The notes below the pieces were generated by a model, which had not been told where the DNA came from, made no database searches, and was given only the letters and a program-made list of their open reading frames with translations. Below are positions 1 to 20,113 of a DNA stretch of 64,000 nt, piece after piece. Both the position numbers and the translations under genes were made by a program. The DNA comes from a virus. The stretch's first letter is position 1; each line of letters opens with the position of its first letter. The stretch spans positions 32,001 to 96,000 of IMG/VR virus record IMGVR_UViG_3300046002_008717; one strand, written 5' to 3'.

Positions 1-2
1 AC

Positions 3-290: not shown

Positions 291-313
291 TATTAAAAAA
301 ATTATCCATAATT

Positions 314-3300
314 ATGAATTTTAATAATTCACTTATATTTCCTCCAAAACTTTTTCTTGGTATAATATTACCAAATCAAACTACAGTGGTTGGAACTTAT
401 TCAGATCCAACTAATCCGTATAACGGCTTTCCGTATAGATGGAGCATAGTTTTAAATATAGATATACAACAACATTCTAATCCAAATACACCAACCCCTT
501 ATTTATATGATGTAAATGATATAATAGTTGGTATGTGGATAGGACAAACTAATGGTAATTCATTTAAAATAGTTGGAATAACATCAACTCTTGGATCAGA
601 AGAAATAACATTAATAATAGAGGATACTGATTTTATGAATCTGATATCATCACCAGATCAAATAGGAACCAATGGGCCATTAGAATCGTCACCTACAGTA
701 ATTTTTAATTTAAATGATTTAGGTGAACCTATATTTGATCCATTACAGAATCAAAGCAGTCAATTACCAATTTATAGTTATTGGGTAAATGATTTAGAAT
801 CAAGATTTAGATTTAGAAATTATTATCAAAGTTTTTTCTATATAGATCCAGGTAGCAATACTAGTGGAATCACTGGTGGAGATCCAGTATATCTTTCTCC
901 CGAATCTACCTTTATAAAAGTGGATTCAACATCACAAGATGATATAGATAAGCTTTTTGGTTATGCATCTAGCGGAAATCTTCCATATCCAGGACATCTT
1001 ACAGTTACCCCATCCGGTAGATATATGAGTGATCTTGTAGATCTAATAGGACCAACTGGTAGCGTATTATATTTAGATACTACTATAACAGGAACTAATA
1101 ATTTAAATTATATCAAACCTGCAACCGGACCAATTAAACCAGTTTATATAAAAATAGATAACAATAGTGCTATACTTATAAGTTCATCAAGTTCTGCATC
1201 AAGCGGGGGTGGAGTAGGAAGCGGTACATCAGGAACTAGTGGATCAAGTACAGGTATACCTGGAGATAATGGTACATCAGGGACAAGTGGAACTTCTGGT
1301 TTATCTGGAACTAGGGGAACCTCAGGTTCATCGGGTTCATCAGGAACTAGCGGAACTAAAGGAACCTCAGGTTCATCAGGAACCTCAGGTATAAATGGAA
1401 CTAATGGTTTATCCGGAACTAGTGGTATAAATGGAACAAGCGGAACTTCTGGAACTAGTGGTATAAACGGAACTAGCGGAACTGCAGGAACTAGCGGTAA
1501 TGATGGAACTAGTGGAACTTCTGGTTTATCAGGAACTAGCGGTATAAGCGGAACTTCAGGAACTAGTGGAGATTCGGGTTCATCTGGAACTTCTGGAACT
1601 AGTGGAGATTCGGGTTCATCTGGAACTTCTGGAACTAGTGGAACTTCTGGAACTAGTGGAACTTCTGGTGCTACCGGAACTAGTGGAACTTCTGGTGCTA
1701 CCGGAACTAGTGGAACTTCTGGTAATAACGGAACTAGTGGAACTTCGGGTTCATCAGGAACTAGCGGAACTTCTGGTAATAACGGAACTAGTGGAACCTC
1801 GGGTTCATCAGGAACTAGCGGAACTTCTGGTAATAACGGAACTAGTGGAACTTCTGGTAATAACGGAACTAGTGGAACTTCCGGTATAAACGGAACTTCA
1901 GGAACTAGTGGTGTTAATGGAACAAGTGGAACTTCTGGTTCATCCGGAACTAGCGGTAATAACGGAACTAATGGAACTTCTGGTTCATCAGGAACCTCCG
2001 GTGTTAACGGAACTAGTGGAACTTCAGGAACAAGTGGTAATAACGGAACAAGTGGAACTTCAGGAACTAGTGGTTCATCAGGAACTAGCGGAACTTCAGG
2101 AACTAGTGGTTCATCAGGAACTAGTGGAACTTCAGGAATTAGTGGTTCATCAGGAACTAGTGGAACTTCTGGAATTAGTGGTTCATCAGGAACTAGTGGT
2201 AATAATGGAACAAACGGTCTTTCTGGTGATAAATATGCAACTATATCAACTACAACATTAACCATAGCTACCGGAGTTCAATCATTAACAGTAGGATTAG
2301 GATTAGCATATACAACAGGACAATCATTAGTTATTGCAAATACTTCAATTAATAGAATGGAGGGTACTGTTGGAACATACAATCCTATTGATGGGGCATT
2401 AGTGGGGAACATTACTGTTATTTTTGGATCAGGAACATTTTCAGCATGGGAAGTCAATCTAGGAGGTGCACAGGGTGCAGACGGAAGTAGCGGTATTTCT
2501 GGTTCATCCGGAACTAGTGGAACTTCAGGCACTTCCGGTGCTAACGGAACTAGTGGAACTTCGGGTTCATCTGGAACTAGTGGAACTTCAGGCACTTCTG
2601 GTGCTAATGGAACTAGTGGAACTTCAGGCACTTCTGGTGCTAATGGAACTAGTGGAACTTCAGGCACTTCTGGTGCTAACGGAACTAGTGGAACTTCTGG
2701 CTCAGCAGGAACTTCTGGTTCAGCAGGTTCAGCAGGAACTTCTGGTTCAGCAGGTTCATCAGGAACTTCTGGTTCAGCAGGTTCATCTGGAACTTCTGGT
2801 TCATCTGGAACTTCTGGTTCATCTGGTTCTAGTGGTTCATCAGGTTCATCTGGAACTTCTGGTTCATCTGGAACTTCTGGTTCATCTGGTACTAGTGGTT
2901 CATCAGGTTCATCAGGTTCATCAGGTTCATCAGGTTCATCAGGAACTTCAGGAACTTCTGGTACTAGTGGAACATCAGGTTCGTCTGGTACTAGTGGAAC
3001 ATCACCTATTTTTCAACGTATTACAGTTGCCGATGCTGATTATACAATAAGTGGTAGTAATAATCAAATAATAGTATACACTTCAATTACAGCAAGAAGA
3101 GTAGTTACTTTGCCTGCTATCTCTACTATTGGCCAAGTTATACAAATTTTAGATGAGAGTGGTTCATTTAATACAACTAAAAGAGTTAGAGTAGAAAGAG
3201 CAGGTGCAGATACAATAGAAGGTGATAGCTATAATATACAGATATCACCATATTCTTCTGCTAGCTATACAAGTGATGGAGTTAGTAGATGGAGTATTTC

Positions 3301-5131
3301 GGGTAGACATCCTAGATTATCATCTGGTAATATATTGCTATCAACATTCACTGATTTAGGAACAGGATCTGTTACTTTAGGAAATAATGGATTATATAAT
3401 TTATTCACGAATATAAGTGGATTAGGTAATATAAGAACCTATGAAATTAATGGCGGTACATTTTCTCTAGTAGATGCTGCAACGAATTATATAGTCAGTG
3501 ATTATAATGGGGGTTCACCTATAATAAGATTAACTACAGATGTTACCATAATAGATGAGACTACTATATGCCCAATATACACCATATATAGATCAGGTAT
3601 AGAATTACATATAATCGATTGGGACCAATTAGGGCTTGCTCTCGTTAATAAACTACATCAATCTATAGTAAAAACACAAAGATATAGATTAGAATCTGGT
3701 TTAGGTGTAGGTGAAGTTGCCACAAGAAGAATTACTGTTGGCGGTGGAATTGTATGGATCGGAGCAAATAAATTCGCATTAGGTCCTTTTAATTCAACCA
3801 CTGACACAACTCATTTGGCATATCATGTTGGAGGCGTATGGACATATTCAGCAATCACGCAATATAATAATACACAATATGATAACGGAACAGATTTAGT
3901 TTCAGTATCACCTAATAAATATGCAGTAAATTACATATACAGAGGAGTTGAAATTGATAGTGAATGCTATGTAGTTTTAGGAGGTGGAAACTATACATTA
4001 ATAGAAGCACATGGTAGTACACCACCTATAAATTTACCAGAACTAATAACAAGCCATGCTGTGTTAGTTGGTAGAATAGTAGTAGAACAGGGTACAGATA
4101 CAGCACAACAAATAGATAGTGCATTTAGTGAAACTTTTGTAATTTCGTCAACTGCTATACATAATGATTTAAGTGGAATCCAAGGGGGTACTGGTGGAGA
4201 ATATTATCACCTACCATTAAACGTTTATAATAATGTTATTGCAAACGGTGGAATAGGAACACCAGGAACTTCAGGAACTAGTGGTTCATCAGGAACATCT
4301 GGTGCTAATGGAACTAGTGGAACATCAGGAACATCAGGAACTAGTGGTATAAATGGAACTAGTGGTTCATCAGGAACTTCAGGTATAAATGGAACTAGTG
4401 GTTCATCAGGAACTTCAGGTATAAATGGAACATCAGGAACTAGTGGTTCATCGGGTACATCTGGTGCTAATGGAACTTCGGGAACTAGTGGTTCATCAGG
4501 AACATCTGGTGCTAATGGAACTTCGGGAACTAGTGGTATAAATGGAACTAGTGGTTCATCGGGAACATCTGGTGCTAATGGAACTTCGGGAACTAGTGGT
4601 TCATCAGGAACATCTGGTGCTAATGGAACTTCGGGAACTAGTGGTTCATCGGGTACTTCGGGTGCTAATGGAACTTCTGGAACTAGCGGTTCATCAGGAA
4701 CATCTGGTGCTAATGGAACATCAGGAACTAGTGGTATAAACGGAACTAGTGGAACATCGGGAGCTAATGGAACTTCTGGAACAGCAGGAAGTAGTGGAAT
4801 ACAAGGAACTAGTGGTACAAGTGGAACTGCCCCATATAAATCATATATAATGACCACCGGAGCAACATATACATTTACCGATTTTAATACAGTGAATACA
4901 TTATCATTAAATAAAACTGTAAGTTCATCAACAACAGTTACTTTAAATCAAAGCCCTGTATTGAATGATTTCTATATAGTAAAAGATAGAAAGGGTGATT
5001 CAGTATTAAATCCAATTACAGTAGATGGAGGGATATATAATATAGATGGTAATGCAACTATTACAATATCTCAATCAAATAAGCCATCCCTAACATTTAT
5101 GTTCGAGGGTGAAGAATACATAATAATATAA
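314..5131 (+). CDS. Giant fibre-like virion protein with Gly-X-Y (GTS/GSS/GAN) repeats, 1605 aa
   Basis: Three long blocks with Gly at every third residue, separated by globular beta-rich domains; C-terminal 'YIVKDRKG...NPITVDG...NIDG' tail-fibre-like domain. Confidence 0.75.
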   Translation: MNFNNSLIFPPKLFLGIILPNQTTVVGTYSDPTNPYNGFPYRWSIVLNIDIQQHSNPNTPTPYLYDVNDIIVGMWIGQTNGNSFKIVGITSTLGSEEITLIIEDTDFMNLISSPDQIGTNGPLESSPTVIFNLNDLGEPIFDPLQNQSSQLPIYSYWVNDLESRFRFRNYYQSFFYIDPGSNTSGITGGDPVYLSPESTFIKVDSTSQDDIDKLFGYASSGNLPYPGHLTVTPSGRYMSDLVDLIGPTGSVLYLDTTITGTNNLNYIKPATGPIKPVYIKIDNNSAILISSSSSASSGGGVGSGTSGTSGSSTGIPGDNGTSGTSGTSGLSGTRGTSGSSGSSGTSGTKGTSGSSGTSGINGTNGLSGTSGINGTSGTSGTSGINGTSGTAGTSGNDGTSGTSGLSGTSGISGTSGTSGDSGSSGTSGTSGDSGSSGTSGTSGTSGTSGTSGATGTSGTSGATGTSGTSGNNGTSGTSGSSGTSGTSGNNGTSGTSGSSGTSGTSGNNGTSGTSGNNGTSGTSGINGTSGTSGVNGTSGTSGSSGTSGNNGTNGTSGSSGTSGVNGTSGTSGTSGNNGTSGTSGTSGSSGTSGTSGTSGSSGTSGTSGISGSSGTSGTSGISGSSGTSGNNGTNGLSGDKYATISTTTLTIATGVQSLTVGLGLAYTTGQSLVIANTSINRMEGTVGTYNPIDGALVGNITVIFGSGTFSAWEVNLGGAQGADGSSGISGSSGTSGTSGTSGANGTSGTSGSSGTSGTSGTSGANGTSGTSGTSGANGTSGTSGTSGANGTSGTSGSAGTSGSAGSAGTSGSAGSSGTSGSAGSSGTSGSSGTSGSSGSSGSSGSSGTSGSSGTSGSSGTSGSSGSSGSSGSSGSSGTSGTSGTSGTSGSSGTSGTSPIFQRITVADADYTISGSNNQIIVYTSITARRVVTLPAISTIGQVIQILDESGSFNTTKRVRVERAGADTIEGDSYNIQISPYSSASYTSDGVSRWSISGRHPRLSSGNILLSTFTDLGTGSVTLGNNGLYNLFTNISGLGNIRTYEINGGTFSLVDAATNYIVSDYNGGSPIIRLTTDVTIIDETTICPIYTIYRSGIELHIIDWDQLGLALVNKLHQSIVKTQRYRLESGLGVGEVATRRITVGGGIVWIGANKFALGPFNSTTDTTHLAYHVGGVWTYSAITQYNNTQYDNGTDLVSVSPNKYAVNYIYRGVEIDSECYVVLGGGNYTLIEAHGSTPPINLPELITSHAVLVGRIVVEQGTDTAQQIDSAFSETFVISSTAIHNDLSGIQGGTGGEYYHLPLNVYNNVIANGGIGTPGTSGTSGSSGTSGANGTSGTSGTSGTSGINGTSGSSGTSGINGTSGSSGTSGINGTSGTSGSSGTSGANGTSGTSGSSGTSGANGTSGTSGINGTSGSSGTSGANGTSGTSGSSGTSGANGTSGTSGSSGTSGANGTSGTSGSSGTSGANGTSGTSGINGTSGTSGANGTSGTAGSSGIQGTSGTSGTAPYKSYIMTTGATYTFTDFNTVNTLSLNKTVSSSTTVTLNQSPVLNDFYIVKDRKGDSVLNPITVDGGIYNIDGNATITISQSNKPSLTFMFEGEEYIII
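1217..3003 (+). repeat. Degenerate 9-bp GGAACTAGT/GGAACTTCT/GGTTCATCA tandem repeat (GTS/GSS triplets), interrupted by a ~280-bp unique module
   Basis: Directly visible 9-nt periodicity. Confidence 0.95.
4255..4827 (+). repeat. Third GTS/GAN triplet repeat block of fibre 1
   Basis: Directly visible. Confidence 0.95.
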
Positions 5132-5134
5132 ATC

Positions 5135-6376: not shown

Positions 6377-6377
6377 T

Positions 6378-6620
6378 ATGAATAAATTTTCATATAACTA
6401 TAATGCCGATATACAACCCGAGGATATACATAATGATATATATAGCAAATTGAAGATATATGCAATTAATATAACATATAATATAGCTAATAATGATCTT
6501 GAAATAATATTCGATTTTAAATTAAATAGTGGACAAAGTAATATATTAGATAATATAATAAGATCACACCCCAAAAAAAAATTAAAAGAGATAATAAATT
6601 TTTACAAAATTAATAATTAA
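6378..6620 (+). CDS. Small protein paralogous to the N-terminal domain of the downstream fibre (start probably 6378 rather than 6366)
   Basis: MNKFSYNYNADIQPEDIHN...DLEIIFDFKL...ILDNIIRSHPKK aligns with MANFSYFYNLAVQPENLYN...DIEIVFDFSL...ILEDTVNNSPPK. Confidence 0.75.
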   Translation: MNKFSYNYNADIQPEDIHNDIYSKLKIYAINITYNIANNDLEIIFDFKLNSGQSNILDNIIRSHPKKKLKEIINFYKINN

Positions 6621-6622
6621 AC

Positions 6623-9600
6623 ATGGCAAATTTTTCATATTTTTATAATTTAGCAGTACAACCTGAAAATTTGTATAATAATATTTTTACAAATCTTACT
6701 GTATATCCGACTAAGTTATATTATGATTTAATGACATTTGATATTGAAATAGTATTTGACTTTTCATTATCTGCTCCACAGCAGGTAATATTAGAGGATA
6801 CTGTTAATAATAGTCCTCCAAAAGATCCAAATGATGCGATATTTTCAGGTGTTATTGCAAATACTTATAATAAAGTAACAATAACACAACCTGCTAATAA
6901 TGCTAGTTTAACTATAAGCGACGGTAAAACACTTTCAGTACCATTAGATGCTTGGGTTTCCAATACAAATACAGGGGATCAAGATTCTACTACTTTATAC
7001 CTAGCAGGATTAACAGGATCTACATATTCAAGTCTTCAAGATTTACAAAATTTATTTCATTCAACCGGCTGGATAAACGGAGGTGATATCACTGATGCAG
7101 GTTCTGGTTTAATAACAGTAACAGGTGGACAGGGTGCGATACGAGGAATAGATAGTGAATTAGCTATTATATATTTTAGTGATTTTCCTGCATCAAGTCC
7201 TTCCGATGTTATATTAACGGATCTTAGTGATAATTATATTTATGTTGAGTATAATGCGGGTTCACCTAGAATCGTTGCTACTGATATTGCCAGAAATGAT
7301 AATAATACAAATTTTTTATTAGGTATTGTTTATAGAAATGCTTCCGTATTAAATGTTAATCAGGGAATTAGATTCGGGGTAAAAGATAAAAACCACGAAA
7401 GTTTGATTGGTTTACAAGGAGGTACTGCTGGAGAACATATTCATTTAACTGCAGCAGAATATGCATTAATAGGAATAGGAGGAACTAGTGGAACATCAGG
7501 TTCATCAGGAACCTCCGGAACTAGTGGTTCATCAGGAACTTCTGGTGCTAATGGAACTAGTGGTTCATCAGGAACTTCTGGAACATCAGGTTCATCAGGA
7601 ACTTCTGGTGCTAATGGAACTAGTGGAACATCAGGTTCATCAGGAACTAGTGGTGCTAATGGAACTAGTGGAACATCAGGTTCATCAGGAACTTCTGGTG
7701 CTAATGGAACTAGTGGAACATCAGGTTCATCAGGAACTTCTGGTGCTAATGGAACTAGTGGTTCATCAGGAACTTCTGGAACATCAGGTTCATCAGGAAC
7801 TAGTGGTGCTAATGGAACTAGTGGAACATCAGGTTCATCAGGAACTAGTGGTGCTAATGGAACTAGTGGTGCTAATGGAACTAGTGGAACTTCTGGAACA
7901 TCAGGAACTAGTGGTGCTAATGGAACTAGTGGAACTTCAGGTTCATCAGGAACTTCAGGTGCTAATGGAACTAGCGGTTCATCAGGAACTTCAGGTGCTA
8001 ATGGAACTAGTGGAACTTCAGGTTCATCAGGAACTTCAGGTGCTAATGGAACTAGCGGTTCATCAGGAACTTCAGGTGCTAATGGAACTAGCGGTTCATC
8101 AGGAACTTCAGGAACTTCAGGAACTAGTGGTGCTAATGGAACTAGTGGAACATCAGGTTCATCAGGAACTTCAGGAACATCGGGTGCTAATGGAACATCA
8201 GGAACATCGGGTGCTAATGGAACATCAGGTTCATCTGGAACTAGTGGAACATCGGGTGCTAATGGAACTAGTGGAACATCAGGTTTATCTGGAACTAGTG
8301 GAACTTCAGGTATAAATGGAACTAGTGGAACATCAGGTTTATCTGGAACTAGTGGAACTTCAGGTATAAATGGAACTAGTGGTTCATCAGGAACTAGTGG
8401 TCTTCCAGGTGATAAATATGCAACTACATCAACTACATCATTAACCATAGCTACAGGAGCTCAATCTTTAACAGTAGGATTAGGATTAGCATATACAACA
8501 GGGCAATCATTAGTTATTGCAAACACATCAGTTAATAGAATGGAGGGTACTGTTGGAACATATAATCCAACGAATGGGTCATTAACTGGAACCATCACTG
8601 TTATTTTTGGATCTGGTACATTTTCATCATGGGAAGTTAATTTAGGCGGTGCTCAGGGAGCAGATGGAAGTAGCGGTATTTCTGGTTCATCTGGAACTTC
8701 TGGTTCATCTGGAACTTCTGGTGCTAATGGAACATCAGGAACTAGTGGTACATCAGGAACTAGTGGTATTAATGGAACTAGTGGTTCGTCAGGTACTAGT
8801 GGTTTATCAGGTACTAGTGGTTCATCAGGTACTAGTGGTATTAATGGAACTAGTGGTTCATCAGGTACTAGTGGTTCATCAGGAACCAGTGGTATTAGTG
8901 GAACATCAGGAACTTCGGGTGCTAATGGAACATCAGGAACTAGTGGTATTAATGGAACTAGTGGTTCATCAGGAACTTCAGGTGCTAATGGAACATCAGG
9001 AACTAGTGGTATTAATGGAACATCAGGAACTAGTGGTATTAATGGAACTAGTGGAACATCAGGAACTAGTGGTATTAATGGAACTAGTGGTTCATCAGGA
9101 ACTTCAGGTGCTAATGGAACATCAGGAACTAGTGGAACATCAGGAACTAGTGGTATTAATGGAACCAGCGGAACATCAGGAACTTCAGGTGCTAATGGAA
9201 CATCAGGAACTAGTGGTATTAATGGAACTAGCGGAACATCTGGTTTAACGGGAACATCAGGAACATCTGGTTTAACCGGAACATCAGGAACCTCTGGTTT
9301 AACAGGAACATCAGGAACCTCTGGTTTAACAGGAACATCAGGAACCTCTGGTTTAACAGGAACCTCTGGTTCTAGTGGAACTTCTGGATTAACAGGAACA
9401 TCTGGTTCTAGTGGAACTTCTGGATTAACAGGAACTAGTGGAACATCAGGAACTAGTGGTCTTAATGGAACATCAGGAACTAGTGGTCTTAATGGAACAT
9501 CTGGAACTAGTGGTCTTAATGGAACATCTGGAACTAGTGGTTTAACAGGAACTTCCGGAACTAGTGGTTTAACAGGAACTTCTGGAACTAGTGGTTTAAC

Positions 9601-10873: not shown

Positions 10874-10887
10874 AAAAAAATAATAAT

Positions 10888-11211
10888 ATGAAATACTTTA
10901 TGACTCAGGGTGGCTATGTAGTAAACGAAAACGGTATAGTTATACCCATGGATGAAGATTCACCTTTATATCCAGATTACGCAACTTATGTATTAGGTGG
11001 TAATTCAGTGGATTTTACTGATTATATAACCTCAGAAGAAATAGAAGATTCTAAGATTAAAATTAGAAAAGAATATAGCTATAGAATATCTAATATAGAG
11101 GGATTTCAAGAAGCATTAGAAAGAAAAATATTAGATGGCACAGAAATACCACAAAATATACTGGATGAAAGAGAATCACTTAGAATAGAATATAGAGATA
11201 GAATTGGATAA
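10888..11211 (+). CDS. Putative tail-fibre assembly/chaperone protein (start probably 10888)
   Basis: IPMDEDSPLYPDYATYVLGGN resembles the IPxDxxNxDYxxY...GN motif of fibre-associated proteins; ends ERESLR; directly follows the fibre gene. Confidence 0.5.
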   Translation: MKYFMTQGGYVVNENGIVIPMDEDSPLYPDYATYVLGGNSVDFTDYITSEEIEDSKIKIRKEYSYRISNIEGFQEALERKILDGTEIPQNILDERESLRIEYRDRIG

Positions 11212-11215
11212 AATC

Positions 11216-11244
11216 GAAACAATTCATATTTACTTTAGTATAAT
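11216..11244 (+). promoter_or_regulatory. Putative ECF-type (middle) promoter GAAAC-N17-GTATAAT
   Basis: One of 7 intergenic copies of this bipartite motif. Confidence 0.6.
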
Positions 11245-11264
11245 ACTTAAATATAAATATAAAT

Positions 11265-11540
11265 ATGTCAGAAACAGTAAAATTACCGGAAGAACTCGTA
11301 TTACAAATACAAGCATTAAAAGATGAATTAACGGAGAATATTATAAGAATAGGAAGATTAAATGTACAAAAATCTTTTTATGAAAAAGATTTAATAGCAT
11401 TAAATGAAGAATTATCATTTCTATATGATCAAGCAGATTTACTAAATACTAAAGAGTCAGATTTACAAAAATTGGTTATAGGTGAATATGGAAATGGCTC
11501 GTTAGATACAGGAAGTGGTTTATATACAAAAACCGAATAG
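11265..11540 (+). CDS. Small coiled-coil hypothetical protein
   Basis: Heptad pattern; C-terminal YGNGSLDTGSGLY motif; own promoter and terminator. Confidence 0.7.
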   Translation: MSETVKLPEELVLQIQALKDELTENIIRIGRLNVQKSFYEKDLIALNEELSFLYDQADLLNTKESDLQKLVIGEYGNGSLDTGSGLYTKTE

Positions 11541-11552
11541 AAATATACACTC

Positions 11553-11590
11553 AAAAAAAAAGATAATATGTAAATATTATCTTTTTTTTT
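11553..11590. terminator. Bidirectional intrinsic terminator between convergent genes
   Basis: A9-GATAATAT-GTAA-ATATTATC-T9 perfect inverted repeat. Confidence 0.85.
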
Positions 11591-11591
11591 G

Positions 11592-13727
11592 TTATTTTAT
11601 TAAATGCTGAATTTGTTTTATAACACTTTCTCCCGTTATAGCTTTATGACATTCGAATTGTTTTTCCGTATTTTTATGCTCAGGACACCAATTCCAATCA
11701 CCTTTATCAAACTTAAAATCCGGATTATTCCAGCATCCGTGGCATACCGATTCATCTATAATTCTAGTACAATTACTAATAAACTCGTGATCTTTTTCAG
11801 TAAAATTTGAAATCATAACAACGTGTTTATTTAAAGCCCATGCTAACCAAGAAAGACCACTGGATAATCCTATAAAAAATTCGCTATGATGTATGCAATT
11901 CATAGTATTCGTAATTGATGTATCTTTTAATTGAGTTACGTTTTTTAAATTCCCCGGGGATTTCGAAATATTAATTATCTTATATCCTCTAGCTACTAGA
12001 TAATCAACTAATACTTGCCAACCGGTTTCATTATTCCATAATTTTAATCCTGCAGTTGATTCATTAGCAATCGTAATATATTTTTTGGCTGATGGATTTT
12101 TAAGCGGTATAAAATCAATTTTAGGTTTTATTTCTTTGAAATCTAATCCTAGTATATTTGTTGCTGTTTTCTGCAATGGTATAGTACTAGGTAAAACCGG
12201 TTCTTTTTTATCATCATAAAACCATCCGATTCTATACATAGCAAATAAATCATTTACTATTATGCTAGGATCAACGAATTCCAATTCAGGATATGATTTT
12301 TTAAATAATTTATTCCAGAAAGTTGATACTACAATATCACATTTATGCTTATTCTTAAATTCCAATACATATGGAATCCAGCATATAGTATCGCCCAAAG
12401 AACTAGATTCAAAAGATATAAATACTTTTTTATTTTCTAAATTCATAGAATATGAATATACCAATTCATTATTTTTATTTCTGATCTTAATTCTCCAATC
12501 TGTATAATATTCTCTTGAGAGTTTTGTCCACATATTTGGGGTCATTTCACAAGTATGATATAGCGTATTATCATCATAGAAATCTACAGTATATTTTTCA
12601 TCCACATTACCAATTATTTCAAAAAATGGATTATTAACGAAATGCATATTATATTTTAGAGGTGCAGATATAGAATTATAATTTAGATCTTTATTAAATA
12701 TATTTTTTTCTATTTGAGTATTTTCTATGTTAGCTATTAATAGATTTCTAGTATCTTCAGATGTATATTCTTTTTTTATTATATTAACAACAGAATACAT
12801 CTTTAACATTCTTTTACATATTATGCTCCAATCAAATTTAACTATATTTAGCTGCGTTTGATCCGCATAATATTTATAGTTATCAAGGATTTCTTTAATT
12901 GCTAATGTAACGGATTCAGTATTTCTTTCCACTATTATCATACCATTAATTTTCTGTGATCCCTCATATGTACCAACTACTGGTAATCCGCAAGCTACCG
13001 CTTCCAATAATGTTAAATTTGGATGTCCAGCTTCGAGTACAGATGGATGTAGAAAAATTGAGTGGCTTCGGTATAGTTCTAAAATATCATCCTCCACTAA
13101 ATTATTAGTAATCAATGTTAGTTTATCATATTCCAACAAATCTTTATGGTGTTCAAAAAATAATTTATTATTTTCAGGCCCAGCTATAGTTATTGGCAAA
13201 TCTAATTTTTTAGCTGCCTCTATTGCATATCTAAATCCTTTTCTATCAAATGATGAATCCCCGCCTATTCCATTATTTGCTATACATAATAACCTATGAT
13301 CATTTCTATATAATACAGAAGGATTAAAGTATCCGGTTTCTACCCCATGAGATAAATAGAAAAGTTTATCGGTTTCTTCAAAAAAATCTACAAGAAATTC
13401 TGCATGCGTGAAAGATATTACAGATCCCCGGATTGCTTCCAAATTTTGATCATATACAAATGTATTTTTACCGTAATATACAACATGATGATCATGCAGT
13501 GAAAATATATAAGGTATTCCTTTTTTTGCTGCTTCTATTGCTAAATTTGCAATATGTATATGTACTATATCAGTATTATTTATATCAACATCATTTAAAT
13601 ATTTAATGTCGCATTCGTTTCCTAATATTTTTAATTCCTTTGTATAATTCCATATAACTTTCTCTACTGCACCCCATCCATTCGGAGGAATTGATATCAT
13701 GCCTGGCGTTACCTGTGTTATTTTCAT
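11592..13727 (-). CDS. Two-domain glycosyltransferase: N-terminal GT4 plus C-terminal autotransporter O-heptosyltransferase-like (TibC/Aah, GT-B) domain
   Basis: GT4: IPPNGWGAVEK, KGF, EAGHPNLTLLEAVACGLPV. C-terminus: SLGDTICWIPY, FIGLSSGLSWLAW, and the CHGCWN...WCPEH...FEC four-Cys cluster typical of the TibC/Aah family. Confidence 0.85.
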   Translation of the reverse strand: MKITQVTPGMISIPPNGWGAVEKVIWNYTKELKILGNECDIKYLNDVDINNTDIVHIHIANLAIEAAKKGIPYIFSLHDHHVVYYGKNTFVYDQNLEAIRGSVISFTHAEFLVDFFEETDKLFYLSHGVETGYFNPSVLYRNDHRLLCIANNGIGGDSSFDRKGFRYAIEAAKKLDLPITIAGPENNKLFFEHHKDLLEYDKLTLITNNLVEDDILELYRSHSIFLHPSVLEAGHPNLTLLEAVACGLPVVGTYEGSQKINGMIIVERNTESVTLAIKEILDNYKYYADQTQLNIVKFDWSIICKRMLKMYSVVNIIKKEYTSEDTRNLLIANIENTQIEKNIFNKDLNYNSISAPLKYNMHFVNNPFFEIIGNVDEKYTVDFYDDNTLYHTCEMTPNMWTKLSREYYTDWRIKIRNKNNELVYSYSMNLENKKVFISFESSSLGDTICWIPYVLEFKNKHKCDIVVSTFWNKLFKKSYPELEFVDPSIIVNDLFAMYRIGWFYDDKKEPVLPSTIPLQKTATNILGLDFKEIKPKIDFIPLKNPSAKKYITIANESTAGLKLWNNETGWQVLVDYLVARGYKIINISKSPGNLKNVTQLKDTSITNTMNCIHHSEFFIGLSSGLSWLAWALNKHVVMISNFTEKDHEFISNCTRIIDESVCHGCWNNPDFKFDKGDWNWCPEHKNTEKQFECHKAITGESVIKQIQHLIK

Positions 13728-13737
13728 TGTTAATTAT

Positions 13738-14730
13738 TTATGTAAATTGTATAATCCCATTTATTATGGATCTAGCATTTATGTCTTTATCTAGAGTATA
13801 TGTTTTTGTAATTTCGATTTCATTATTAGAATCATAAACACTAATATCCAATACGTCATTATTTATAGTAAAATTTCTATATGCCCAATAGTTACATATT
13901 ATTATTTGATCCTCTACTATAATATCATTTATTTTAATTACTAAGTGTTTATTTTCATTTGAATTATTATGATAATATAATACAGGAATAGATGGATCTT
14001 TTATATTATATAGCAATTCGACAATAAAGTTCTCGATCCTTAATATATTAATTTCGCTTTTTGCAAAATACTCGCTCGAATGTTCATCTATAATTAAAAA
14101 ATCGGATTCATATTTTTCTAATTTATCCAAAAATGCCAATTCTAATGTAAATTCCATTTGAGTATTATACCATTCATCTATATTAGTTGGGAGTTCAAAT
14201 ACTCTATTAAAATAAGATGGTGTTATACCAAAAAATTGGGTTTCATAAACTAATGAATTTTTACTTCTATCCCTAGTTTCTGTTGTAAAATTTTTAGGTT
14301 TAAAGAAAATACACTTTTTGTTATTTAATATCATTTCATCAAGAAGGGAATTTAATAATAATACGTCACTAGATTCAAATACATTATCATTTTCACTAAA
14401 ATATACAAAATCGTATTTTTTAATCTCTGAAAATTTAAAAGCATTATACATATTCTGACATATTGGCAACCCGTGGCTTTGATTATATACTTTTATAAAG
14501 AAAGCATCTAAGCTGCTCCAATAATACGGTGAAATATCTCGGGGTGTCAATGTTTGATTTTTATCAAAAATATAATAATCTATCATATTTTGTATTTCCG
14601 ATGACACCGGATAATGGCTAACCACCATTATATCAAATCCTATATTTTTTAAAGATAATATTTCTCTCTTTAATATATTCTCTTTCTTAGCTGTATTAGG
14701 ATATGCACCTATTACTATTAATTTTTTCAT
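13738..14730 (-). CDS. Putative GT-A-like glycosyltransferase domain protein (unassigned family)
   Basis: IVIGAYP...VVSHYPVS..IQ...DYYIFDKN, ENDN acidic motif and LELAF; paralogous to domains in two neighbouring genes. Confidence 0.55.
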   Translation of the reverse strand: MKKLIVIGAYPNTAKKENILKREILSLKNIGFDIMVVSHYPVSSEIQNMIDYYIFDKNQTLTPRDISPYYWSSLDAFFIKVYNQSHGLPICQNMYNAFKFSEIKKYDFVYFSENDNVFESSDVLLLNSLLDEMILNNKKCIFFKPKNFTTETRDRSKNSLVYETQFFGITPSYFNRVFELPTNIDEWYNTQMEFTLELAFLDKLEKYESDFLIIDEHSSEYFAKSEINILRIENFIVELLYNIKDPSIPVLYYHNNSNENKHLVIKINDIIVEDQIIICNYWAYRNFTINNDVLDISVYDSNNEIEITKTYTLDKDINARSIINGIIQFT

Positions 14731-16448
14731 CCTTTATGAAAAGTTTTATATTCCTTATCTATCAATGAATATCCATCAGCCTGAGTGGTAATTCTATTTT
14801 TCAATATACCCATATTAGTTCCACCGAATATTATATTAAAAAATGTATCCATACAATCCCATTTAGCTAATCTAAGTTTTTCCAATAGAAATTCTCTAGA
14901 TTTTAAAGGAAACATTATACACTGTAATCCTATTATTTTATTAGTAATAAATAATAAATTCTGGCCTGGTATTTCTTTGATTATATCTGATTGCTCCCAC
15001 CTAAAATCAAGTGTTTTTGTATCACCAAATGAAAAATACGTAATACCTTCTCTGTTCACTATATCGCACACCTCGTTAACTTTAGCAATAAAATCCATCA
15101 TTTCCGTTTCTATTATACAATCTCCCTCACATACCATAAGAAAATCTAGATCCTTATCAAATTCTGACATTATGCCAATTTTAAATGATTCAAAACATCC
15201 ATAATGTGAAGGTGTTAATGCCTTTCCGTATTCTGGATCGCCTATGCTATATTTTTCCATCCTTACATTATGTGGTCTTAATGAAGTATGCAATGGCGGT
15301 AATGAAGTATATACTGGATTTTGGTGCAAAACGTATTCTATACCATAATCAATTACATTTTCTAATGACTTTCTTGAATGTATTTCCCTATCATCATTAT
15401 TCGTAGTCTGTAGATGTAATAATTTAATTTTATGCTTTCTTTTATTGGTATTTACTAAATAGCAAGCTTTTTTTAGCTTATCTATGTTAGAATTATCAAC
15501 TTTTAAAGTAAATTTATTTTTTTCAGTTTTTATGCTTAAATCGAAAAAACTTTTACCCAAATTATATGAATACCAATTATTACCTTTCACTTTTATATTA
15601 TCTTCCTTGCCGTTTATAGTAACTATGATATCATCACTAAATGATGCTGCTATATAAAGTTCAAATGTATTATTTTCCGGATTCCAGACAACAAAATAAT
15701 TTGTTAGATCTAATGTTGATATTAGATCTATAGTTTCCCTACTATTTTTAAATAGCGTTATTTTGCCATCATTATTTGCTATATTATCAACAACTACGAT
15801 TTTATCCGAATCTTTAGAAAAATATTCATAATAAAATGTTTCTAAACAAAGACCCTTTAAATGTGAAGTTCTATCGATCCAATCTCGCTTGGAAATAAAT
15901 TTAGGTATGGTTGATAGATAAAAATCTAAATTCATATAGAAATATAATGTTTGATAACCGTTGAATGAATTTAGACGTAAATCTTCGAAATAAGCTTTTT
16001 TATTTAATTCGACCATTGATTTATCAAACTCTATTAAAACCTCTATGTCACCATCATTTAAAATAGAATCACCTACAAAAAAATGTATATTATCGTATCC
16101 TAATTGTTTCAAATATATAAAATTCTTATCAAATTGTCTTATTATTGAATATGTTACATCAAATGTATTAATGCCCTTACCTACTAGTTTAAAATTTTTT
16201 GTTGTATATGTTTGGTTTGAAAAGATATTCATTTTTTTGCTATCCAATATTTCTTGGAATGTGATTATATCGTTTTCATTATTATACAGCGAAAATGTAC
16301 ATATTTCTTGTATGCGTTCATCTATAGGTACTAATGATGTATAAATAACATCTTTACCAGTCTTTTTTAATTGCGATATACAATCTAGTACTATATTAAC
16401 TTTTTCTTCAGTATCTGCCCAAAAATTAACTACTATACAATTTTTCAT
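14727..16448 (-). CDS. Two-domain putative glycosyltransferase (N-terminal GT-A-like paralogue plus C-terminal GT25-like domain)
   Basis: C-terminal HYGCFESFK...MVCEGDC...GLQCIMFP...CMD resembles GT25 GCxxSH/EDD motifs. Confidence 0.6.
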   Translation of the reverse strand: MKNCIVVNFWADTEEKVNIVLDCISQLKKTGKDVIYTSLVPIDERIQEICTFSLYNNENDIITFQEILDSKKMNIFSNQTYTTKNFKLVGKGINTFDVTYSIIRQFDKNFIYLKQLGYDNIHFFVGDSILNDGDIEVLIEFDKSMVELNKKAYFEDLRLNSFNGYQTLYFYMNLDFYLSTIPKFISKRDWIDRTSHLKGLCLETFYYEYFSKDSDKIVVVDNIANNDGKITLFKNSRETIDLISTLDLTNYFVVWNPENNTFELYIAASFSDDIIVTINGKEDNIKVKGNNWYSYNLGKSFFDLSIKTEKNKFTLKVDNSNIDKLKKACYLVNTNKRKHKIKLLHLQTTNNDDREIHSRKSLENVIDYGIEYVLHQNPVYTSLPPLHTSLRPHNVRMEKYSIGDPEYGKALTPSHYGCFESFKIGIMSEFDKDLDFLMVCEGDCIIETEMMDFIAKVNEVCDIVNREGITYFSFGDTKTLDFRWEQSDIIKEIPGQNLLFITNKIIGLQCIMFPLKSREFLLEKLRLAKWDCMDTFFNIIFGGTNMGILKNRITTQADGYSLIDKEYKTFHKG

Positions 16449-16454
16449 TTTTTA

Positions 16455-16871
16455 TTAATGCTCTAAGTTATTTCTCATCGTTATACACTCATTTATAAAT
16501 CCATTTCTTTCATAAAAATTAACTCTATCAGGAAAACATGAAAGTATAACCTTATAGCAACCAAGATCTTTTGCTTTTTTTATTAATGCATCTAGTAATT
16601 TGCTACCTATATCGTTTCCTCTATATTTTTCTCTAATAGCGACATCCTCTATTAAACCTGCTATTCCCCCGTTACGTATTAATTTATTTTCTATGTGTAA
16701 AATGCCTGTTCCTATTATATCATTTTCATGTTCAACCACTAACATATGGTTATTATTGGATAGAAAGCTATTAAGTGTAAAATCGCTTATTTCTGAAATA
16801 GACCAAACCTCTTTATATGTTTCTAATAGCCCATTATCTATATCCTCTTTTTTAAAATCTCTAATTATCAT
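16455..16871 (-). CDS. GNAT N-acetyltransferase (GNA1/glucosamine-phosphate acetyltransferase-like)
   Basis: IEDVAI...YRGNDIG, GCYKVILSC, FYERNGF. Confidence 0.85.
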   Translation of the reverse strand: MIIRDFKKEDIDNGLLETYKEVWSISEISDFTLNSFLSNNNHMLVVEHENDIIGTGILHIENKLIRNGGIAGLIEDVAIREKYRGNDIGSKLLDALIKKAKDLGCYKVILSCFPDRVNFYERNGFINECITMRNNLEH

Positions 16872-18022
16872 ATGTATAATTTATATCCTTCTATTACTTT
16901 ATTAGCTACGTATTTTACCTCATCATCAGATAATTTCATATGCAAAGGTAATGATATTATTTCCTCGCTTATCCCATGTGAATATGGACAAGTTCCATAC
17001 CCATCGCTATACATTTTATAATGGGTATTATCTCTATAATGAACTCCTGGATATATGTTTTGTGTATTTAGATATTCCATGATTTTATTTCTATTTGGAA
17101 CTACAATCTGATATAAATGTCTAGATGAAACTATAGTTTCTTTACTAGTCTTTATAGATTTTATTGCAGTATTTTTAAAGAAATCATCATATAGTGAACA
17201 TATTTTTCGTCTTCTTATATTATCATCTTCCAGATATTTCAATCCAACTATTCCCATGGAAGCCATTATAGAATTTCCGTGATATTTATAACCAACATCA
17301 ACTAATTCATATTCCCATTTATAGCTTCCCTTATCATTGGTTCTTTGATACGTATCCTTGTCTATACCAAGCCAAGATAGTTTTCTTGCTACTGAATCAT
17401 AGTCATCATTTTTAAAACATATCATACCAGAATCAGCAGTTGGCAAATTCTTAACTGCTTGAAAGCTAAATATAGTAACGTCAGCATTATCACCTATATG
17501 AACAACATCCCCTTTATAATCTAATATTCTTGTCCCCGCCATATGTGCAGCATCCAGAATCAATTTGATCTTGTATTTTTTACATATATCTACAATTTTA
17601 GAATATTGCCCTGCATTTCCACCCATGCCTACAAATAAAACGGCTTTTGTTTTCTTTGTAATTCTTTTTTCTACTGATTCAGGATCCAAACATAAAAATT
17701 CATCCACATCAGCAAATATAGGTTTTAAATTCTCGTATAATATTGCATGATTGGTTGATATAAATGTTAATGGGGTTGTAATAATTTCATCACCATCTGA
17801 CCATTTATTAGCATCTTTCAATATCTTAACAGCCAGATGTAATCCGGAAGTATTAGAATTTAAAAAATGCGCATTTGGTAGATTTGTGTATTTTTTCCAA
17901 GCTTCCTCAAACTCTATAGTTTTATAACCTAATCCAGTCCATCCTTTATCTAAACATTCATTAATCTGTTCAGTAATTTCCTCGTTTCTAAAATAAGGAA
18001 CAAATAAATTTATATTATTCAT
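16868..18022 (-). CDS. DegT/DnrJ/EryC1/StrS PLP-dependent nucleotide-sugar aminotransferase
   Basis: NSNTSGLHLA, GDEIITTPLTF, DAAH, FSFQAVKNL (PLP lysine), ISLPLH. Confidence 0.92.
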   Translation of the reverse strand: MNNINLFVPYFRNEEITEQINECLDKGWTGLGYKTIEFEEAWKKYTNLPNAHFLNSNTSGLHLAVKILKDANKWSDGDEIITTPLTFISTNHAILYENLKPIFADVDEFLCLDPESVEKRITKKTKAVLFVGMGGNAGQYSKIVDICKKYKIKLILDAAHMAGTRILDYKGDVVHIGDNADVTIFSFQAVKNLPTADSGMICFKNDDYDSVARKLSWLGIDKDTYQRTNDKGSYKWEYELVDVGYKYHGNSIMASMGIVGLKYLEDDNIRRRKICSLYDDFFKNTAIKSIKTSKETIVSSRHLYQIVVPNRNKIMEYLNTQNIYPGVHYRDNTHYKMYSDGYGTCPYSHGISEEIISLPLHMKLSDDEVKYVANKVIEGYKLYI

Positions 18023-20004
18023 ATATTCTCTTTTAACATCCCATTATTATAATGATGAGATACTGTTTCATTATTTAGTTTATAATTTTCTTTTTTGTAT
18101 ACATTTTCTCCATCATAGAATAATACATTGATATCAATTGGTATATTTCTATATTCAATTTTTTTAACATATTCCCTAGTTTCTGATATTTTTATTCTTT
18201 CGTTAAATATTTTAATCTCATTCTCTAATATGGTAATTTCTAATTCCTTTTCATCTAAATTGTAAGTAAAAAAATAAAAAGCCCATATATTAGTCGAATC
18301 ATTTACCGGTATAAGCGAAAAATATTCAGAATTGGACGAAACTCCTAATCCAGAATTTGGAAGAATAGTTCTTTCGTCGTTATTGACGATCCAAAGTAAT
18401 TCTTCATCCTTTAAAATCCTCATGAAATAATCTTCTAAAAAATTCTGACATCCCAATTCAATACATAGGTTATTAAATATATCGCCATCTCTAATATCAC
18501 TAAATATTTCTAGAAAATAGTTGGTCCTAAATACCATCGATGTCGTTTCTATGCCTTCACCTAAATCCGTATTCATTTTGGATAAACAACATTTCCAATT
18601 ATTATCTAATTTATCAAAATACCCATTAATTAATTCAATATCAAGATCATTTAAAATCACATCATAGGTTACTGTCATAACTTTAGATATTCCTAATTGT
18701 TTAGCTAGCAGCATACCATTATAAAGATTTATAAAAGCAGCTAATGATTGATTCGGTTTCTTTGAGTTGTTTATATTAATTTCTGCTCTATACTTTTCAG
18801 TATTGCTATAGAATTTATTATAATATGAATTTGGAATCATCATATTATTTTTATCGTATATGTAATAATCTACCTCTTTTTGTATTTCCAACGAAACCGG
18901 GTAATGAGAAACCAATATAATTTTTCTATTTAGTTTTTTAAAACTATTGATGCAATCGAGAGTTAAATTTTTTCTTTTTATCGTATCAGGATACGTAGTT
19001 ATTATAATCCCCTCTGATTCTTCTATATTTTCGTATGAATCATTTATTTTTTCTGGTTTTATGATTCTTAATAAAATTTCAATATCTTTTTCAATATCAC
19101 CAGTTATGAAACTAATATTTTCATAATTATCATATTTACTACAATACACATCCAAATTATACATTAACATAGGTATTTTATACTCAAGAGCTTCCTTTAA
19201 TGCAATTGGATTCAATTCCTTATTATTTCGATCCCCTTTAGATGCAAAGAAAAATAAATCGCTTGCCTCTATGAACGAAGGTACATCCTTTCTTTCACCC
19301 CATAATATACAATTATCTGGTTTATCATCTAATAATGGCTTCCAGTAACTTTTGAAATTATCTGCTTGGTTTCCTAAAAAATGAAATTTTATTTTATATT
19401 CTTCCAATCTTCTTGCAATTTCAAACACATAGGATTGATTTTTTCTTTCCGTAAATAAACCTACATTCAATACGTGTTTATATGTGGGATCAAATTCTAA
19501 AATTCTTTGATTTTTTTGTTTATCCGGATTTTTATAATCTACTGGATATTCTACTATTTCATAAGGGATATCATATATCGAATATCTGAATCCATTAAAT
19601 GCACTTACGAATATAAATTTATCGGGAAAAAATCTTTTTGATGTTACAGGAAAACTCGAATCGTGAGTAGTTTCTAATATAGTATAGGATCTATCACTTT
19701 TATAAATTAATTTTGTTATATTATCATCCATGAAAAATTCTGGAAATTCCTCCATACTAATCACATCAGGCTTAAATTCATCAATTATATCTAGTAAGCG
19801 ATTCTTATTATCACCAAGTGAATGAAAATTGGATCCCAGTAATTTTTCTACTTGATTACGTTGTATAACAAAAGCAAAACCAAAAAAATCATATTCTACA
19901 CATTTTATAATATAGTTATCATTTAATAACTTTATTTTATTTAGAGTTACTTGAGGGGCACCTCCTGTACTAAGATGAGGAGTTATTACTAATATTTTTT
20001 TCAT
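18019..20004 (-). CDS. Two-domain glycosyltransferase (N-terminal GT4 plus C-terminal GT-A-like paralogue)
   Basis: PHLSTGGAP, VGLFTERKNQ, ELNPIALKEA; C-terminal ILVSHYPVS..IQ..VDYYIYDKNN. Confidence 0.8.
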   Translation of the reverse strand: MKKILVITPHLSTGGAPQVTLNKIKLLNDNYIIKCVEYDFFGFAFVIQRNQVEKLLGSNFHSLGDNKNRLLDIIDEFKPDVISMEEFPEFFMDDNITKLIYKSDRSYTILETTHDSSFPVTSKRFFPDKFIFVSAFNGFRYSIYDIPYEIVEYPVDYKNPDKQKNQRILEFDPTYKHVLNVGLFTERKNQSYVFEIARRLEEYKIKFHFLGNQADNFKSYWKPLLDDKPDNCILWGERKDVPSFIEASDLFFFASKGDRNNKELNPIALKEALEYKIPMLMYNLDVYCSKYDNYENISFITGDIEKDIEILLRIIKPEKINDSYENIEESEGIIITTYPDTIKRKNLTLDCINSFKKLNRKIILVSHYPVSLEIQKEVDYYIYDKNNMMIPNSYYNKFYSNTEKYRAEININNSKKPNQSLAAFINLYNGMLLAKQLGISKVMTVTYDVILNDLDIELINGYFDKLDNNWKCCLSKMNTDLGEGIETTSMVFRTNYFLEIFSDIRDGDIFNNLCIELGCQNFLEDYFMRILKDEELLWIVNNDERTILPNSGLGVSSNSEYFSLIPVNDSTNIWAFYFFTYNLDEKELEITILENEIKIFNERIKISETREYVKKIEYRNIPIDINVLFYDGENVYKKENYKLNNETVSHHYNNGMLKENI

Positions 20005-20024
20005 GTATCTATTATAATAAAGTT

Positions 20025-20052
20025 ATTATACATTTTAATGGCATATTGTTTC
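20025..20052 (-). promoter_or_regulatory. Putative ECF-type promoter of the glycosylation operon, GAAAC-N16-GTATAAT
   Basis: Reverse complement of ATTATAC(20025-31)...GTTTC(20048-52), 21 nt from the ATG at 20004. Confidence 0.65.
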
Positions 20053-20087
20053 TTATATTGGCAGGTAAAACTAGTTATATTATATTT

Positions 20088-20095
20088 GATATATA
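20088..20095 (+). promoter_or_regulatory. Putative late promoter GATATATA (overlaps a TATATTTG element)
   Basis: Recurs upstream of 10 mostly structural genes. Confidence 0.65.
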
Positions 20096-20113
20096 AAAGA
20101 AAGTAGTAATTAA

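Follow-up and report, generated by a model that had tools for sequence, protein, structure and literature searches.

The window analysed here, a stretch of 64,000 nucleotides covering bases 32001-96000 of a 111.7-kb viral contig (IMG/VR record IMGVR_UViG_3300046002_008717), probably encodes a protein O-glycosylation system by which a phage modifies its own collagen-like fibres. Two giant fibre genes rich in Gly-Thr-Ser (GTS) and Gly-Ser-Ser (GSS) triplets converge on a six-gene minus-strand operon (11592-20004), whose last gene, P0004, encodes a domain of the TibC/Aah type (BAHT) fused to a glycosyltransferase (GT) domain of family GT4. The established parts of this reading are an intact catalytic set, soluble enzymes, and a conserved partner of Gly-Ser/Thr-Ser composition. 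That the enzyme would glycosylate the fibres is well supported by comparative genomics. The enzyme family and the idea of phage virion glycosylation are known; the substrate class and the clade are new. Our literature search, outside of which most subscription journals lay, found no work linking BAHT enzymes with phages or collagen-like proteins.

The TibC/Aah-type domain and the collagen-like fibres

P0004 (711 aa; 11592-13727, minus strand; PF00534/PF13692, PF01075 and TIGR04414) combines an N-terminal GT4 domain (about residues 1-310) with the BAHT domain (residues 381-708, DNA 11595-12590). TIGR04414, the curated Aah/TibC model of NCBI, was matched with 280.4 bits, above its cut-off of 200 (E 2e-83; 280.2 bits on the whole-contig rerun), and the TibC structure PDB 4RAP aligned at E 1e-54 over TibC residues 50-381. 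These searches bear out the preliminary description, which had assigned the domain to this family from the motifs SSLGDTICWIPY and GLSSGLSWLAW and a cluster of four cysteines (Cys662, Cys665, Cys681 and Cys693). The residues with assigned roles in TibC, namely Asp-110 as catalytic base, Thr-226 and Lys-230 at the beta-phosphate and Trp-305 at the sugar O4 (PMC4358343), have their equivalents in Asp446, Thr558, Lys562 and Trp627 of P0004. The catalytic Asp, Thr, Lys and Trp as well as the four Cys are invariant across 78 distinct viral sequences. The cysteines align with Cys-339, 342, 358 and 370 of the iron finger of TibC (PMC4358343), and iron binding is predicted.

Two regions differ from TibC. 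Arg-286 of TibC hydrogen-bonds adenine N1, the basis of its ADP-sugar specificity (PMC4358343), and this adenine contact is missing in P0004, which has Thr608 at the position. In the viral clade of P0004, 53 of 56 sequences have Thr there; Arg was found in 46 of 51 classical bacterial sequences and in 20 of 22 sequences of a second viral clade. With Thr in place of the Arg that reads adenine, the donor in the clade of P0004 is probably not ADP-heptose and may carry a nucleotide other than ADP. The earlier remark that the donor sugar need not be heptose thus appears reasonable. No heptose-pathway gene was recognised among the proteins scanned of the contig, which is 39% complete. A GDP-heptose pathway (GmhB-HddC-like) was considered because it would fit the lost adenine contact, and was rejected: the HAD-nucleotidyltransferase fusion upstream of the window through which it would run matches beta-phosphoglucomutase and RmlA-type models. 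The second difference concerns the beta-hairpin thumb (Phe-265/Val-266) that joins TibC dimers into a dodecameric ring (PMC4358343). The thumb region comprises 22-23 residues in both viral clades versus 31-32 in the classical enzymes, the hairpin residues being deleted relative to TibC. A thumb shorter by about 10 residues, as in P0004, would fit a thin rod or an unfolded chain as substrate rather than a beta-helix inside a ring.

The shortened thumb and the lost Arg may also be taken to mean that the domain is inactive as a transferase and serves as chaperone or scaffold in fibre folding; a small gene, orf91, sits between the fibre and enzyme genes in the manner of an assembly factor. We regard this explanation as very improbable, since invariance of the catalytic Asp, the phosphate-binding residues and the Trp in the viral sequences would not be expected without catalysis, and the BAHT domain is fused or adjacent to further transferases.

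The proposed glycan acceptors are fibre 1 (P0001, 1605 aa; 314-5131, plus strand; PF01391 E 3e-93) and fibre 2 (P0002, 1416 aa; 6623-10873, plus strand; PF01391 E 5e-87), which contain 234 and 214 Gly-X-Y triplets, respectively, in five runs of 60-109 triplets. The tracts occupy residues 314-640, 718-897 and 1312-1506 of P0001, with globular domains between them, and residues 284-598 and 676-1002 of P0002, which ends in a C-terminal domain of about 400 aa. GTS occurs 129 times in each fibre, GSS 41 times in P0001 and 29 times in P0002. Ser dominates the Y and Thr the X position; together they make up 78% of the X/Y positions in the tracts of both fibres, and 3 Pro and 12 charged residues were counted among all 896 positions. 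Both the repeats, which are far beyond chance, and the layout of two fibre genes converging on a six-gene minus-strand operon were found as first described, the latter with an exact match of coordinates. The two fibres have the long uninterrupted Gly-X-Y runs typical of Pfam Collagen, and a triple helix is predicted.

P0001 matches PHROG tail-fibre families via its collagen tracts, and the C-terminus of P0002 matches phrog_13925. In a PDB sequence search with the globular parts, a stretch of fibre 1 returned collagen only and the C-terminal domain of fibre 2 nothing meaningful; a literature search on the 'axial/spindle fibril' of the collagen-like PDB entry 8ZXL found nothing relevant. A globular insert of about 77 residues between tracts is common to P0001 (residues 641-717, window 2234-2464) and P0002 (residues 599-675, window 8417-8647). 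Both fibres also have the motif H-x-x-L-x-G-[IL]-Q-G-G-x-x-G-E-x-x-H-L immediately ahead of a tract, and these common elements point to a modular, duplicated fibre design.

Collagen-like fibres thus take the place of the autotransporter partner otherwise seen with the BAHT family. The AIDA repeat model PF16168 had no match on the 111.7-kb contig, whereas E. coli among the control genomes did match.

Gene neighbourhoods in phages and bacteria

IMG/VR contained 166 stretches encoding a BAHT domain with 53-70% identity, and the neighbourhoods of the best 80 loci were read with flanks of about 10 kb. A collagen ORF (open reading frame) dominated by GTS/GSS was present in 54 of these 80 loci; in 53 it converges from downstream, and in one (L080) it lies upstream of the enzyme gene. 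Three of five contigs without collagen in the 10-kb flank carry collagen repeats elsewhere, and two more surfaced in a pattern scan. As a control, 48 phage loci anchored on GDP-mannose 4,6-dehydratase (Gmd; 801 kb) were read, none of which holds a collagen ORF or the enzyme. In the reverse direction, viral DNA was scanned for runs of six GT[S/T]-type triplets, which gave 120 stretches. At least 9 of these have the enzyme, 5 within the part that was read and 4 on contigs where its presence was already known; it was also found in 3 of 13 further contigs searched whole. In GenBank, 4 of 50,697 phage records contain a BAHT domain.

The phage's own relatives were found via the neck protein and comprise 44 loci, with neck proteins 54-67% and terminases 64-76% identical. 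A BAHT gene lies beside the neck gene in 38 of them. Here the order, all on one strand, is fibre, orf91 homologue, GT4 gene, a separate BAHT gene of about 393 aa, and neck. The orf91 homologue and the GT4 gene were also present in 34 of the 44 loci, the others ending at contig ends. Three more distant relatives have neither the enzyme nor collagen in the flanks. In the window, orf91 encodes a small helical protein of 91 aa (11265-11540, plus strand); Pfam and PHROG searches gave no family match, and tblastn found homologues with 32-58% identity at the same position in the 34 relatives. It is possibly a fibre assembly factor.

The BAHT domain of P0004 is 70% identical to the enzyme of unrelated phages. 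Identity to the enzymes of its own relatives is mostly 38-44%, rising to 57% over short matches at contig ends. Since it is closer to unrelated phages than to the phage's own kin, the operon island looks like a lateral replacement, inverted and enlarged. Only the modules of P0004, P0005, the C-terminal part of P0006 and P0007 travel together in 17-19 of the 80 loci; the DegT and GNAT genes accompany them once.

A cultured representative is Microcystis phage Mel-JY01 (PP395634.1, 190 kb). It encodes, in this order, a collagen ORF of more than 1000 aa (2-3049, plus strand; 202 triplets, among them GTS 77 and GSS 57), a 'structural protein', and a 1226-aa 'FkbM methyltransferase' with a C-terminal TibC-like domain. 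GenBank has no annotation for the collagen ORF and lists two 'hypothetical proteins' on the opposite strand instead. The reading frame of this ORF is already open where the linear record begins, and thus the gene may continue at the other end. A 'cytidylyltransferase-like' protein of this phage had no NCBIfam match.

Two further arrangements were observed among the viral loci. In one subgroup (L023, L025-L030, L040, L047 and L060) the BAHT domain is the C-terminus of multi-enzyme proteins of 1000-1480 aa that start with a methyltransferase. These loci also contain ATP-grasp-like, carbamoyltransferase-like, radical-SAM-like and sulfotransferase-like genes, and collagen genes are far off on the contig or were not seen. 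In the other (L019, L024, L034 and L067; about 14700-20987, minus strand) the fibre gene downstream of the TibC-like one opens with Gly/Ser/Asn-rich repeats of a type other than Gly-X-Y, possibly beta-helical, and sulfotransferase-like and kinase-like genes follow the enzyme gene. In a sibling locus (L038) the same fibre type also has a collagen tract.

The evolutionary relationship of the enzymes was analysed with a FastTree tree of 158 BAHT domains and an IQ-TREE mixture-model tree of 74 representatives. The deepest branch of the former (support 100, length 0.53) splits a classical clade from a superclade of 107 domains, and in the latter all classical sequences lie on one side of a branch with an SH-aLRT of 91. 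P0004 belongs to the superclade, outside the autotransporter-associated clade. Collagen neighbours were recorded for 68 members of the superclade and a large repeat neighbour for none; the classical clade has 25 members with large AIDA/autotransporter-type neighbours and one with GAT-type collagen. After clustering at 90%, a collagen neighbour was found in 57 of 83 superclade versus 1 of 39 classical clusters (Fisher test, 3e-13, kinship being ignored).

Bacterial loci were taken from a scan of one genome per prokaryotic species, which yielded at least 550 BAHT loci; the 80 best of these were read. A collagen-like ORF was found in 19 of the 80, and 18 of these are among the 29 bacterial loci in the superclade of P0004; in these 18, small GSS/GTS collagen genes adjoin a stand-alone BAHT gene. 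In a Methylococcales contig of 2.67 Mb (L327, 7899-9966), for example, a stand-alone enzyme of 371 aa and a protein with a signal peptide, some 45 GTS triplets and a C-terminal domain of roughly 130 aa are encoded by converging genes, set among the housekeeping genes lgt, thyA, ppa and lpxC. Similar small GSS/GTS proteins, some with a CarboxypepD_reg-like domain, flank the enzyme in Arenicellales, Burkholderiales and others. In 21 of 26 bacterial loci of this kind the enzyme stands alone, which argues that the repeat is paired with the BAHT domain and not with GT4. Bacterial enzymes that are less closely related (Burkholderia, Bradyrhizobium and others) adjoin proteins of 1200-2600 aa with AIDA repeats and autotransporter beta-domains.

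The co-occurrence of GTS-repeat genes with TibC-like domains, suggested at the outset as a test, was thus found in two phage clades, Mel-JY01 and bacteria. That this neighbourhood was kept through many rearrangements, in viruses as well as in cells, speaks for function. The central claim, that the TibC-like domain acts on Ser/Thr of the fibres, is strongly supported by this gene neighbourhood in two phage clades with different gene orders, in Mel-JY01 and in the bacterial pairs.

The enzyme might instead glycosylate another phage protein, such as P0003, the neck or the sheath protein, or the globular parts of the fibres. TibC acts on folded beta-helical repeats (PMC4358343), the enzymes of L019 and L034 adjoin fibres with Gly/Ser/Asn-rich non-collagen repeats, and mycobacteriophage glycans are found on capsid and tail-tube subunits, as cited in PMC12619734. 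However, the G-[S/T]-S tract is the only feature common to the neighbours in phage clades A and B, Mel-JY01 and the bacterial modules, while the globular domains differ, and the contig has no AIDA repeat. We therefore consider another acceptor unlikely.

T4-like neck, terminase and sheath genes on the contig bring to mind a further target, the phage DNA, which could be glycosylated as in T4 so that it evades restriction. We know of no BAHT that acts on DNA. The conserved partner is a class of protein-coding genes which also occurs in the bacterial two-gene modules, and no hydroxymethylase was seen adjoining the island. Although phage GTs often act on DNA, according to PMC12619734, this explanation appears extremely improbable for the enzymes described here.

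The operon and its genomic surroundings

The six genes of the operon are tightly packed, three junctions being 4-bp overlaps and the others 6-10 bp apart, and no membrane segments were predicted in their products. The first gene encodes P0007 (661 aa; 18019-20004, minus strand), a GT4 domain (PF00534 E 5e-11) joined to a paralogue of the P0005 domain. It is followed on the same strand by a sugar aminotransferase of the DegT/DnrJ/EryC1 family (384 aa; 16868-18022; PF01041 E 1e-77), a GNAT N-acetyltransferase (138 aa; 16455-16871; PF00583 E 4e-19), P0006 (573 aa; 14727-16448) and P0005 (330 aa; 13738-14730). With two GT4, one BAHT, three GT-A-like and one GT25-like domain, the initial count of about seven GT-like domains was accurate, and the DegT and GNAT genes are present as described.

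P0005 had no Pfam, NCBIfam or PHROG family match. Its AlphaFold model (pLDDT 92.4, alignment of 25 homologues) consists of a GT-A domain and a C-terminal beta-sandwich and matched GT-A transferases in Foldseek with probability 1.0; D115, D122 and E197 as well as an E-x-D motif are invariant. Paralogues of this domain form residues 333-497 of P0007 (E 8e-17) and the N-terminus of P0006 (E 2e-6). In a protein-atlas search the domain was found in viruses only, often fused to GT4, GT2, GT25 or Aah/TibC domains. The C-terminal domain of P0006 (residues 336-573; model pLDDT 93.5) has a GT-A fold of the GT25-like type and an invariant E-x-D motif, without a Pfam match at E 0.01. The best PDB match of the model is the human collagen galactosyltransferase COLGALT1 (E 2e-9, TMq 0.62), with Mimivirus R655/R699 and PBCV-1 A64R lower on the list. 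An atlas lead (score 0.97) points to a cluster with PF01755 in 75% of its members.

The nearest solved relatives of the GNAT protein are glucosamine-6-phosphate N-acetyltransferases (PDB 1I12/1I21, E 4e-19). The DegT protein scored 210 bits with the PseC model, below its cut-off, and matched sugar aminotransferases of the PDB at E 1e-43 to 1e-21. A route to GDP-perosamine via Gmd and DegT was rejected: perosamine synthases are more remote PDB matches (E 1e-23) than other sugar aminotransferases, and the sugar is therefore left unnamed.

The fibre unit ends 0.7 kb from the 3' end of the operon, on which it converges. Between the two units lies a bidirectional terminator-like hairpin (11552-11591), a perfect 18-bp stem with A9 and T9 flanks and a minimum free energy of -17.2 kcal/mol (z -7.4 versus shuffles). 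The gene between the two fibre genes, P0003 (5135-6376, plus strand), encodes a virion structural protein (phrog_1645 'virion structural protein', E 1e-66). Ahead of this region the contig encodes a gp15-like protein and a fibre protein with an Mtd_N domain, and the T4-like genes for neck protein, large terminase and sheath lie 3' of it. Nearly all genes of the contig are on the plus strand. The G+C content is 31% for the contig, about 31% around the island, 26-28% in the operon island and 33-42% in the fibre genes. A megablast of the island against GenBank phages gave no match, and the terminase shares 31-39% identity with its counterparts in metagenomic huge phages, Tenacibaculum phage PTm1 and Sphingomonas phage PAU. 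Since CheckV estimates the contig to be 39% complete, the phage is probably a jumbo phage.

A second glycan cluster is located on the plus strand upstream of the window (contig 10075-20244; loci L081 and L082). It encodes GT11, GT2, an FkbM methyltransferase, GT6, a GT7C domain fused to GDP-fucose synthase (Fcl), and Gmd, as well as the beta-phosphoglucomutase-like HAD domain fused to a sugar-1-phosphate nucleotidyltransferase.

This second cluster (GT11, GT2, GT6, Gmd and Fcl), the moron-like island, inverted and lower in G+C than its surroundings, and the identity pattern of the BAHT domain, which points to lateral exchange, might also suggest that the island remodels the host surface. In that case lipopolysaccharide, capsule or a surface protein would be modified for superinfection exclusion or receptor masking and the proximity of the fibres would be incidental. 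GT4, GT25-like, DegT and GNAT proteins are indeed typical of O-antigen and lipopolysaccharide pathways. Yet the operon has no initiating transferase, flippase, polymerase or membrane protein; BAHTs are protein transferases (PMC4358343); the pairing of enzyme and collagen persists across gene orders and in the bacterial two-gene modules; and in the relatives the GT genes lie inside the structural block. On balance, host-surface remodelling seems a rather unlikely function.

The preliminary description had assigned a middle-type promoter to the operon. A promoter-like motif, GAAAC-N17-TATAAT, is present at 20025-20052 on the minus strand and ends 20 nt 5' of the operon's first ATG. Across the window this class of motif shows no enrichment (7 sites versus 4.5 expected, with 17 of 100 shuffles performing as well), and a sigma-70 scan of the window was no better than shuffles. 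Expression of the operon in the middle phase is thus not borne out: no claim on timing follows from a motif class that is not enriched, and the GT genes of the relatives are co-directional within the structural block.

A different element, GATATATA, has 14 copies in the window (e.g. at 20088-20095), all on the plus strand and most of them 20-50 nt ahead of a structural gene. Ten relatives share it at 25-52 nt ahead of the neck gene but lack it before their GT genes. This element is likely a late promoter; the comparable late promoter of T4 is TATAAATA.

Proposed mechanism and comparison with known systems

Several observations weigh against glycosylation of the fibres by the BAHT enzyme. The substrate would be assigned from gene neighbourhood alone, and the trees contain one deep split, so that the association of enzyme and collagen may represent few independent events. 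Contigs estimated to be 98% and 84% complete have runs of GTS-type triplets without the enzyme; the link from fibre to enzyme is therefore not obligatory. Some enzyme-adjacent fibres of the relatives are, in the part seen, rich in GAQ and not in Ser/Thr, and in one viral subgroup the BAHT loci abound in other tailoring enzymes and have no collagen gene within 10 kb. The acceptor of TibC is a folded beta-helix, so that a triple helix would have to be recognised in a different way. Finally, a low-G+C island on the opposite strand also fits a laterally acquired 'moron' that modifies the host.

If the fibres are the substrate, the BAHT domain would transfer, in the cytoplasm of the infected cell, the first sugar from a nucleotide-diphosphate sugar to the hydroxyls of Ser, perhaps also Thr, in the about 450 triplets of P0001 and P0002, before the fibres trimerise or while they do so. 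The fused GT4, the other GT4, the GT25-like and the GT-A-like domains would then lengthen the glycan. DegT and GNAT could supply an optional N-acetylated amino sugar, and the GDP-fucose and GT11/GT6 cluster upstream would perhaps widen the sugar repertoire. The glycans would give the fibres a carbohydrate surface. Capping of the glycan with an acetamido sugar, as originally envisaged, is not supported, with DegT and GNAT accompanying the enzyme in one of 80 related loci.

Viral collagen-like proteins usually depend on Lys-Gly-Asp/Glu salt bridges, and (Gly-Pro-Thr)10 is a random coil unless its Thr is galactosylated (PMC11923368). The glycans are probably needed for a stable triple helix because the tracts are without proline and Lys-Asp/Glu salt bridges. 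Instead of the 'cloak' first put forward as the purpose, stabilisation of a Pro-free triple helix is at least as likely; judging from tract composition, it is most likely the primary role of the glycans, with shielding or adsorption as further effects. A broader proposal, which we advance tentatively, is that a distinct and widespread TibC-like subfamily of phages and bacteria is a dedicated O-glycosyltransferase for Gly-Ser/Thr-Ser collagen, and that the fibres fold as a triple helix only when glycosylated, the glycans replacing hydroxyproline and salt bridges. This would represent a glycosylation-dependent collagen fold for building very long virion fibres.

Should fibre glycosylation hold true, a new branch of the enzyme family would serve a large class of big phages, common in the environment, to make fibres of glycoprotein, and the same enzyme-substrate pair would exist in free-living bacteria. 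It would explain the stability of collagen-like helices without proline or charge pairs and would bear on phage adsorption to hosts and the recognition of phage glycans. Metagenome pipelines name thousands of such proteins 'autotransporter strand-loop-strand O-heptosyltransferase', a name that is probably wrong as to the substrate. Routine annotation would thus be corrected both for 'autotransporter O-heptosyltransferase' and for the 'FkbM methyltransferase' of Mel-JY01, which with Microcystis provides a cultured phage-host pair.

To our knowledge, few cases of phage virion glycosylation have been described, and TibC-type enzymes are known to modify autotransporter adhesins only. The closest known systems are TibC-TibA and Aah-AIDA-I of E. 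coli (TIGR04414; PDB 4RAP/4RB4; PMC4358343), whose enzymes are of the same family and share the GT-B core, the catalytic Asp, the Thr/Lys pair, the Trp and the four Cys. Like these, P0004 would be cytoplasmic and hyperglycosylate Ser of a long repeat protein whose gene adjoins its own. Unlike them, it falls into a separate clade, is fused to GT4, is encoded by a phage, and has as partner a collagen-like Gly-Ser/Thr-Ser protein instead of a beta-helical autotransporter of the AIDA type. Unlike TibC, it also has the shorter thumb and Thr in place of Arg-286, so that its donor may not be ADP-heptose.

In mycobacteriophages, glycans are reportedly attached to the C-termini of capsid and tail-tube proteins by enzymes said not to be of the BAHT type, with no collagen-like acceptor reported. 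As in the system proposed here, the transferases are phage-encoded and modify, in the host cytoplasm, structural proteins of the same phage (Freeman et al. 2023, as cited in PMC12619734).

Prokaryotic collagen-like filaments with O-glycans have a precedent in BclA of the Bacillus anthracis exosporium, whose Gly-Pro-Thr repeats carry O-linked oligosaccharides (Daubenspeck 2004, as cited in PMC11923368). BclA resembles the phage fibres in bearing its glycans on the triplet Thr and in forming a surface nap of fibres, and differs from them in its proline-rich triplets and in being a spore protein and not a virion protein. We know of no BAHT-type enzyme in BclA glycosylation.

At the level of fold only, with 16-19% identity, the C-terminal domain of P0006 resembles COLGALT1 (GT25) as well as Mimivirus R655/R699 and PBCV-1 A64R, enzymes of giant-virus fibril and capsid glycosylation. 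The hydroxylysine acceptor of COLGALT1 is impossible in the phage fibres, because these contain almost no Lys. In the cuticle collagen of Riftia, glycosylated Thr replaces hydroxyproline as stabiliser of the helix (Mann 1996, as cited in PMC11923368). This is an animal system with galactose on Thr at position Y, unlike the phage fibres, which have Ser at Y and Thr at X. Together with (Gly-Pro-Thr)10 it provides a physical rationale for why a collagen built on Ser/Thr only would need a dedicated transferase.

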